A stretch of 57,562 bases of DNA, the filler included, from Dugesia japonica (lineage: Eukaryota), in the NCBI GenBank assembly GCA_001938525.1. It is 6 parts of 6 records of this genome, joined end to end, with 100 filler letters (N's around TTAATTAATTAA, not from the genome) between each part and the next. Parts side by side here need not be neighbours in the genome. Positions count along the whole stretch, not along the records: positions 1 to 9,980 come from MQRL01595067.1; 5 more parts are not named here. One strand, 5' to 3'. The translations under genes and the position numbers were made by a program. Positions 1,372-2,484 of this stretch are shown piece by piece. Every line of letters starts with the position of its first letter. Position 1 is the stretch's first letter. Under the pieces are notes generated by a model. The model was not told where the DNA came from. It was given only the letters and a program-made list of their open reading frames with translations, and searched no databases.

Positions 1372-2484
1372 GTGATTAATGGACACTCTCAATCAATACT
1401 ACAACTCCTGGCTGATATTGAGCGCAACAGCGGACAAGTCGAGTCAGCGGCACCTAGAGGATCTAATACAGGTGATATTGCCCAATCAAAGAGAAAATAT
1501 GTGGATCTTGATGATGAGTGCTCTGTATCATCCAAAAGAATATGCACAAATGATGAAACGCCTAAATCTACGGTCCCATTGCCAGAAAAAGAAAGTAAAA
1601 GGCATCAGAACTACACATTCAATTTCCCACTTGGAAAATTCCAAACGATGGAGGAATACTATGTGAATTTATGGAAATCAAATTGTAAATATATCCTATA
1701 CCAAAAAGAAGGTAAATACTAGACATATGTTAATTAGTAAAAATTACATTTGTTTATTATTTTCAGTTTCTGATGGTGGTTATAAGCACATTCAGGCATA
1801 TGCGGAGTTTAAAGATGCTATAAGCTTTAATCGCGCCAAAGACTTATTGGGTGTTCCATTTGTAAAACCAGTTTCAAAGGAGGACAAAAAATCCGTTATG
1901 CTTTACTGTAGTAAAATAGAAACTCGAATGACAGGCACTCTACCTGTATCATATGGAATCCCAAGTACGAACTGTTTTTCAGAAGAGAAGACACTAAACC
2001 TAAAATCAGTAGTAAAAAAAATGCGTGGCATAATGCTTTAAATGCTCCTAATAAAAGTCAAGCAATCGGAATAATAAAATCGAATTTTCCGGAATTTAAT
2101 CTATGCAAGCGTAAAGTTTTAAATGAGAATCTAGAACAGGAATTCGGTGTGACTACAACGTCATTTTTCCATAATTTCATTATTCCTTATTTCAATGTAT
2201 GGGATCAAAAGTCACACATATTTATAGCGCCATCTAATATTGGAAAGACATGTTTTGCTCTGGCTCATTTTAAATCACCAGTCCATGTGAAAGGACTTCA
2301 AAATTTTGGTCGAATAAGCTCTGATCCTGAAATTGAAGACGGCATTGTAATTGATGATATGCCTTTATGTACATTTCCAACTAATGAATTGTTAGGAATA
2401 TTAGATATATGCTATGAAAATCCAATTAATATAAAATATTCTACGGGTTATCTTCCTGCATTTTAACCTAGAATAATCTGTTTA
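1372..2484 (+). pseudogene. rep: CRESS-DNA-virus-like rolling-circle replication initiator (HUH endonuclease + SF3 helicase), spliced and disrupted
   Basis: Motif I-like NYTFNF. GT-AG intron 1712-1766 joins YILYQKE-V-SDGGYKHIQAY (motif II xHxQ). Motif III YCSK. -1 frame change around 1950-2021. Geminivirus-like central helices (AWHNALNAPNKSQAIGIIKSNFP), Walker A APSNIGKT, Walker B IVIDD. In-frame TAA at 2464-2466 just before the motif-C-like PRIICL. Confidence 0.85.

Follow-up and report, generated by a model that had tools for sequence, protein, structure and literature searches.

A probable U2-type intron between rolling-circle motifs I and II of the Rep gene of a PEVE-like element

Gene content of the locus

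The window, by which the whole analysed stretch of 57,562 nucleotides (filler included) is meant, is an animal scaffold, rich in AT and interrupted by 43 gaps that contain 2533 N in all. Near its start, positions 1369–2505 (+) encode a CRESS-type Rep that is dispersed over three frames. The protein has the make-up of such Reps, with HUH motifs I–III fused to an SF3 helicase, at Pfam scores mostly under curated cut-offs; the match of its second part to Viral_Rep (PF02407) is a weak one of this kind (E 8e-4). The top Atlas clusters for P0004, one of the close relatives described below, are also CRESS Reps (score 0.96–0.97). No ATG was found upstream of motif I in the frame of the first coding part (1369–1711). 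This part is overlapped in another frame by a 96-codon open frame (1376–1666, +, ATG at 1379), which may have arisen by chance or may be an overlapping gene. Bearing on the duplication at 1351–1379 is a contig from sequencing run X1, which covers 1247–1513 and differs from the window there by no letter but by a gap of 15 positions in total.

Table 1. Coordinates of features in and around the Rep–helicase region of the window
Feature	Position	Strand	Remarks
Small hairpin	842..856		Picked by eye, upstream of Rep; 6-bp stem and 3-nt loop; not a canonical origin
14-nt duplication round a single N at 1365	1351..1379	+	Likely assembly artefact
Rep, first coding part	1369..1711	+	Low-complexity basic N-terminus and strand before motif II; aligns to P0001 from residue 69
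Motif-I-like YTFNF	1612..1626	+	Inside the first Rep coding part
Likely U2-type intron	1712..1766	+	55 nt, AT-rich, GT...AG; retention would shift the frame and stop translation
Rep, second coding part	1767..1966	+	Motif II HIQ 1787–1795; motif III YCSK 1904–1915
Rep frame-change zone (approximate)	1960..2010	+	Matches to P0001, P0003 and P0004 leave frame 2 and continue in frame 1
Rep central and SF3 helicase part	2011..2505	+	Weak Gemini_AL1_M match; in-frame stop 2464–2466
Second gene, stand-alone SF3 helicase of ~220 aa	2646..3308	+	PPV_E1_C (E 3.5e-8) / Parvo_NS1 type; open

Judged by alignment, the change of frame within the Rep is probably a break in this copy and not a second intron. 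The window Rep is also without a 3′ part that its relatives have; where the window holds 160 letters, a contig of run X10 holds 552, and the same contig connects Rep to the second helicase. Taken together, the change of frame at ~1960–2010, the stop at 2464–2466 and the missing 3′ part indicate that this Rep copy is non-functional.

The second helicase gene is intact beside the broken Rep. It is open and of about the same length (~220 aa) in the window and in its relatives P0008 and P0010, and the called protein has neither a nuclease nor an origin-binding domain. The contigs that carry P0008 and P0010 have lengths of 4342 and 3164, equal to those of the Rep relatives P0003 and P0001, from which we infer that the two genes are linked in these relatives and that the pair is likely conserved. 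Scanning metagenomes with the second helicase yielded 1 weak locus in 550 stretches (L001, 29% over 71 residues); its match, at 76–297, is at the end of a 4.9-kb contig with no Rep nearby, and the locus was left out of the comparisons.

Terminal inverted repeats above chance were not found in 1–4700, though an end of the element may have been lost through decay or may fall outside the start of the window. The nonanucleotide NANTATTAC has three matches in the same interval, all in AT-rich sequence, and the two sites that were folded gave no origin stem-loop (z −0.09 and 1.0), possibly owing to loss by decay. The small hairpin upstream of Rep folds with z −2.15, and 6 of 200 shuffles fold equally well. 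As to a capsid gene, the two upstream ORFs have no Pfam match and no long ORF is present downstream. The sequence upstream of Rep at 449–896 is low-copy, with GC of ~35%, an exact X1 contig over 375–733 and scarcely any paralogue depth in runs X8 and X10. Next to it, 225–448 is a very high-copy short repeat, with a summed X1 contig depth of 224,612 as against <15 in the next two bins; this repeat is also seen in poly(A) reads and has no Rfam match.

Host genes were recognised elsewhere in the window. The TBCD gene at 21701–26245 (+), pieces of which match human TBCD, has introns of 49, 47, 45 and 45 nt and one long intron; one TBCD intron was confirmed as a 15-residue gap against the human protein. 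An Atlas search with TBCD gave no closer placement of the host. Polycystin-, lectin- and phosphatase-like frames, read by eye, are presumably further host genes, and Ty3/Gypsy-like RNase H and integrase remnants were noted, also by eye, at 29679–30707 (+).

The 55-nt segment and its counterparts in related Reps

The segment 1712–1766 (+) is in phase 1 relative to the frame of ORF 1369–1722. It is bordered by AAG/GTAAAT on one side and TATTATTTTCAG on the other, that is, by a GT donor and by a pyrimidine run followed by CAG, a YAG acceptor. Its GC is 0.18, compared with 0.38 in both 1369–1711 and 1767–2000; stops are present in two of its three frames, and the upstream Rep frame ends at one of them (1720–1722). 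Translation across the two coding parts, with X standing for the junction residue, gives YQKE-X-SDGGYKHIQ, with 7 residues from Q.E to H.Q. The same spacing is found in P0005, P0007 and P0006 (QRE-V-SEAGFDHVQ in the last), as well as in the solved Rep structures 6h8o/2hwt, which were compared via P0007.

As a chance control, all GT..AG pairs able to join the two Rep frames in the region were considered, 6 in number, and each was scored against a register profile made solely from the three insert-free relatives. Removal of 1712–1766 gave 45.0 bits with the whole profile covered; the other five donor–acceptor pairs reached 12.3–27.9 bits and were discarded. No Rfam match was obtained at E 0.5 in window 1–7000, this segment included, and 55 nt is far below the size of a self-splicing intron. 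The preliminary description of a GT–AG segment of 55 nt, in phase 1, whose removal restores the run-up to motif II, is confirmed, and 1712–1766 is most likely a spliceosomal U2-type intron that separates RCR motif I from motif II in the Rep. The same description had its size matching host introns, which is right to the extent that the lengths are similar, 55 nt being slightly above the 45–49 nt of the four short TBCD introns.

The Rep relatives are six Logan proteins, which are all the matches of the protein search with Rep: P0001, P0003 and P0004 are close to the window Rep (57–67% identical over the helicase), and P0005, P0006 and P0007 are distant. The latter three combine a circovirus/nanovirus-type nuclease with a helicase that has a common ALAHF-type motif and is 28–42% identical to that of the window, and are apparently a chimeric Rep lineage; a PDB search with P0005 gave no useful match. 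The candidate P0002 is an insect repeat protein with a score inflated by 14 repeats, and was dropped as a false match. Scans for the DNA of the relatives matched 18 and 121 stretches in viral contigs, 0 of them confirmed, and the metagenome scan for Rep matched 245 stretches, again with 0 confirmed, so that the inserts below are described as deduced from protein.

At this level, an insert occupies the motif I–II site in 3/3 close relatives and 0/3 distant ones. The insert of P0004 amounts to 18 codons plus one base, or 55 nt, between the same flanks, and shifts the frame. P0004 is open to its C-terminus (345 codons), and its called N-terminus is in the downstream frame, as in window ORF 1667–2041. 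Read in the alternative frame, its first 16 residues are compatible with the exon-1 peptide at 11/14 positions, a level reached by 0/2117 control windows (maximum 8) and 0/5000 shuffles (maximum 9). With the window and P0004 compared in one frame, codons are identical at 0/11 positions in the middle of the insert, 7/7 at its ends and 40/60 in the next exon, which suggests that only the splice ends are conserved within the insert. P0001 has an insert of 51 nt (17 residues), in frame and with no stop, the ends of which are compatible with GT and AG; its profile score is 48.0 bits once the 17 residues are replaced by X, against 32.6 for the called protein. The P0003 gene call begins within the insert, and both P0003 and P0004 as called are without motif I.

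The seven-row tree places the four insert carriers on one branch with 85/96 support, a value below the tool's star and accompanied by a long-branch warning, and 28/500 label shuffles equal that branch. Since all three close relatives have the insert, it is likely that the intron characterises the family and was not gained by the window copy, and since these relatives are just 57–67% identical to it, the intron is likely older than that copy. Conservation of the intron position in kin, which had been put forward as a check, is therefore borne out at the protein level by the insert at the same site in 3/3 close relatives. It had also been proposed that homologues aligning through the segment as protein would speak against an intron; P0001, with its readable 51 nt, does so, and P0004 does not. 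It is thus very probable that the intron is genuine and that a small PEVE-like family has it in common.

Transcripts, paralogous copies and rival explanations

Four of 24 listed runs were compared with window 1–6700, with the small-share runs X7, X9 and X11 excluded from counts. The joint 1711–1767 is not among the 15 listed of the 35 joints in these four runs. In the raw poly(A) run X13, ~25% of the reads of which were sampled, depth is zero over 1345–2016. A host exon at ~6330–6485 has a depth of ~30 in the same run, with 66 reads that exit it by way of an AG acceptor; the run itself is therefore sound, and the Rep locus is uncovered in the quarter sampled. In X8 and X10, some paralogue contigs appear to stop at 1719, which is 8 nt inside the intron, and so to stem from unspliced molecules; that these two runs are RNA is, however, a guess, and their coverage of repeats is like that of DNA, which they may be or contain.

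Six runs from three studies contain 0.40–0.68 of the sampled words, all from one organism, and one of these runs is possibly the source of the window. Contigs that are 10–20% diverged span Rep and the second helicase in X1, X8 and X10. No second copy of the Rep–helicase element was found inside the window, and no listed contig runs from the element into unique host DNA. That diverged copies occur and that all runs containing them are from one organism speaks for an endogenous element in several copies and against contamination.

Three other explanations were weighed. The insert could be a protein loop of 17–18 residues before motif II, in which case the 55-nt forms would be decayed, frame-shifted copies. 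The open reading frame of P0001 across its 51-nt insert and the breaks elsewhere in the window copy fit this account, as does the insert site itself, which from Rep structures we take to be a hairpin loop able to accept an insert. It is nevertheless very improbable, given that P0004 has the same 3n+1 length in a gene otherwise open for 345 codons, that the insert retains its ends with no identical codon in its AT-rich middle (0/11, GC 0.18), and that P0001 gains 15 bits in profile score once its insert is removed. The segment could instead be an intron that the element gained after a long stay in its host, and the closeness of 51–55 nt to host introns of 45–49 nt, together with the possibility that the relatives belong to this host or to allied species, would agree with this. 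The preliminary description had read the intron in this way, as a sign of long adaptation to the host spliceosome. This reading is unsupported and rather doubtful: the intron is common to elements only 57–67% identical in the helicase and so predates the insertion of this copy, and short GT–AG introns, being predicted in non-integrated CRESS viruses as well, are not specific to a host.

The remaining alternative, that the Rep–helicase block comes from an extrachromosomal PEVE-like virus, or from a contaminant, and was wrongly assembled into a host scaffold, is in line with the fragmented, N-rich assembly and with the lack of a bridging contig among those listed; PEVE had, moreover, not been found integrated according to the accessible text of PMC3198968. 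We regard it as quite unlikely, since the copy is broken at several places, diverged copies recur across several studies of one organism, and the gap-free piece 1366–4639 continues into sequence of repeat-like depth. Contamination is thus disfavoured, as the preliminary description had it, although the intron is not the best basis for saying so, the paralogues and the restriction of the runs to one organism being better arguments. On balance, it is highly probable that the segment is a U2-type intron spliced by the host, family-wide and situated ahead of motif II and after motif I. The window copy that contains it is broken and is likely an integrated one, in the genome of an invertebrate that is probably a planarian, to judge by the likeness to PEVE.

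Proposed role and comparison with known systems

In an intact element, removal of the intron by the host spliceosome would bring motif I into one frame with the motifs that carry the histidines and the tyrosine, and the spliced product would be a rolling-circle nickase with an SF3 helicase fused to it; a stand-alone E1/NS1-type helicase would be supplied by the second gene. Translation of the unspliced 55-nt form would meet a stop within a few codons after the donor, leaving an N-terminal piece without the metal-binding and nicking motifs. As the retained intron would remove the catalytic motifs, splicing is presumably obligatory for replication. For P0001, retention would add 17 residues. An extended and speculative version, to which we give only a small chance, is that an undescribed flatworm family of PEVE-like, two-helicase elements gained its own Rep intron, separately from those of gemini-/genomoviruses and circoviruses and at a point dividing motif I from the catalytic residues, with splicing acting as an all-or-none switch of replication. 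Such a switch might be confined to certain cells, for instance stem or germ cells, by analogy with the P-element transposase, which is gated by germline-only splicing.

The window copy is dead and splicing of Rep transcripts is a known general phenomenon. The locus also marks a small group of Reps with no named member among the matches, and gene calling tends to shorten or misinterpret these proteins. Should the host be a planarian, a laboratory model would be available in which to study how a viral Rep is spliced.

The elements most similar in composition are PEVE of Girardia tigrina and PIVE of Schmidtea mediterranea (Repbase), which are described in the accessible text of Liu et al. 2011 (PMC3198968) as having a Rep-like protein and a PPV_E1_C/Parvo_NS1-type protein, PIVE being integrated. 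The window element likewise pairs a Rep with a separate E1/NS1-type helicase, and the host group is likely the same; it differs from both in that its two genes are adjacent and co-oriented and that terminal inverted repeats were not seen in 1–4700. Proteins of PEVE and PIVE were not among the matches of the searches with Rep and the second helicase, which were word-limited and so say little against kinship.

The Rep intron of genomoviruses and of four geminivirus genera is located near the nuclease–helicase junction, and the unspliced RepA retains the nuclease. As in these viruses, the window Rep would be made by splicing of a clade-inherited intron, and its central part has a weak Gemini_AL1_M match. 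In contrast to theirs, the window intron is placed before motif II and splits a nuclease of the circovirus/nanovirus type (PF02407), which makes a separate gain likely. The distantly related structures 6h8o/2hwt (nanovirus-type) and 7lar/5xor (circovirus Rep) have the Q.E-to-motif II spacing of the read-through window Rep, without an insert.

Short predicted GT–AG introns have been reported in the Reps of cycloviruses and cruciviruses, with lengths of 56–170 nt in the accessible parts of PMC8622408, PMC8471302, PMC9241739 and PMC5822885. These include a 56-nt cyclovirus intron downstream of motifs I and II (PMC8622408), introns of two cruciviruses inside the nuclease domain, between motifs I–II and III (PMC5822885), and cyclovirus introns that follow a first exon of 161 nt (PMC8471302). 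The window intron resembles them in being short and GT–AG, and two of the papers place theirs inside the HUH domain. The 161-nt exon would end just after motif II. Where placed, these introns come after motif II, whereas that of the window is between I and II; their genomes are, in addition, circular and capsid-encoding, and in the window neither a capsid gene nor a canonical origin was found. The statement in the preliminary description that the known Rep introns, those of mastreviruses and genomoviruses, lie downstream of motif III was therefore too broad as a picture of Rep introns, as the accessible texts of PMC5822885, PMC8622408 and PMC8471302 also have predicted introns inside the nuclease.

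Its view that an intron between motifs I and II is unusual stands, since no published Rep intron was found at that position in the literature covered, to which subscription journals were mostly external and in which figures or supplements may place some introns. Among the accessible texts that deal with spliced Reps or their context, no motif I–II intron is given in PMC9241739, PMC7468197, PMC6186406, PMC11463337 and PMC6723397, nor is one placed there in PMC8703526, PMC10731770, PMC7138691, PMC10288648 and PMC9241645. The site therefore appears to be new, introns in Rep and inside its nuclease being already known. As far as the available text of Zhao, Lavington and Duffy (bioRxiv 10.1101/687855) goes, the Rep intron of Genomoviridae and of Mastre-, Becurto-, Capula- and Grablovirus has one origin, and a second origin occurred in circoviruses. 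To these two gains the present family likely adds a further one at a different site, for which the evidence goes beyond a GT–AG scan in that relatives have the insert as well.
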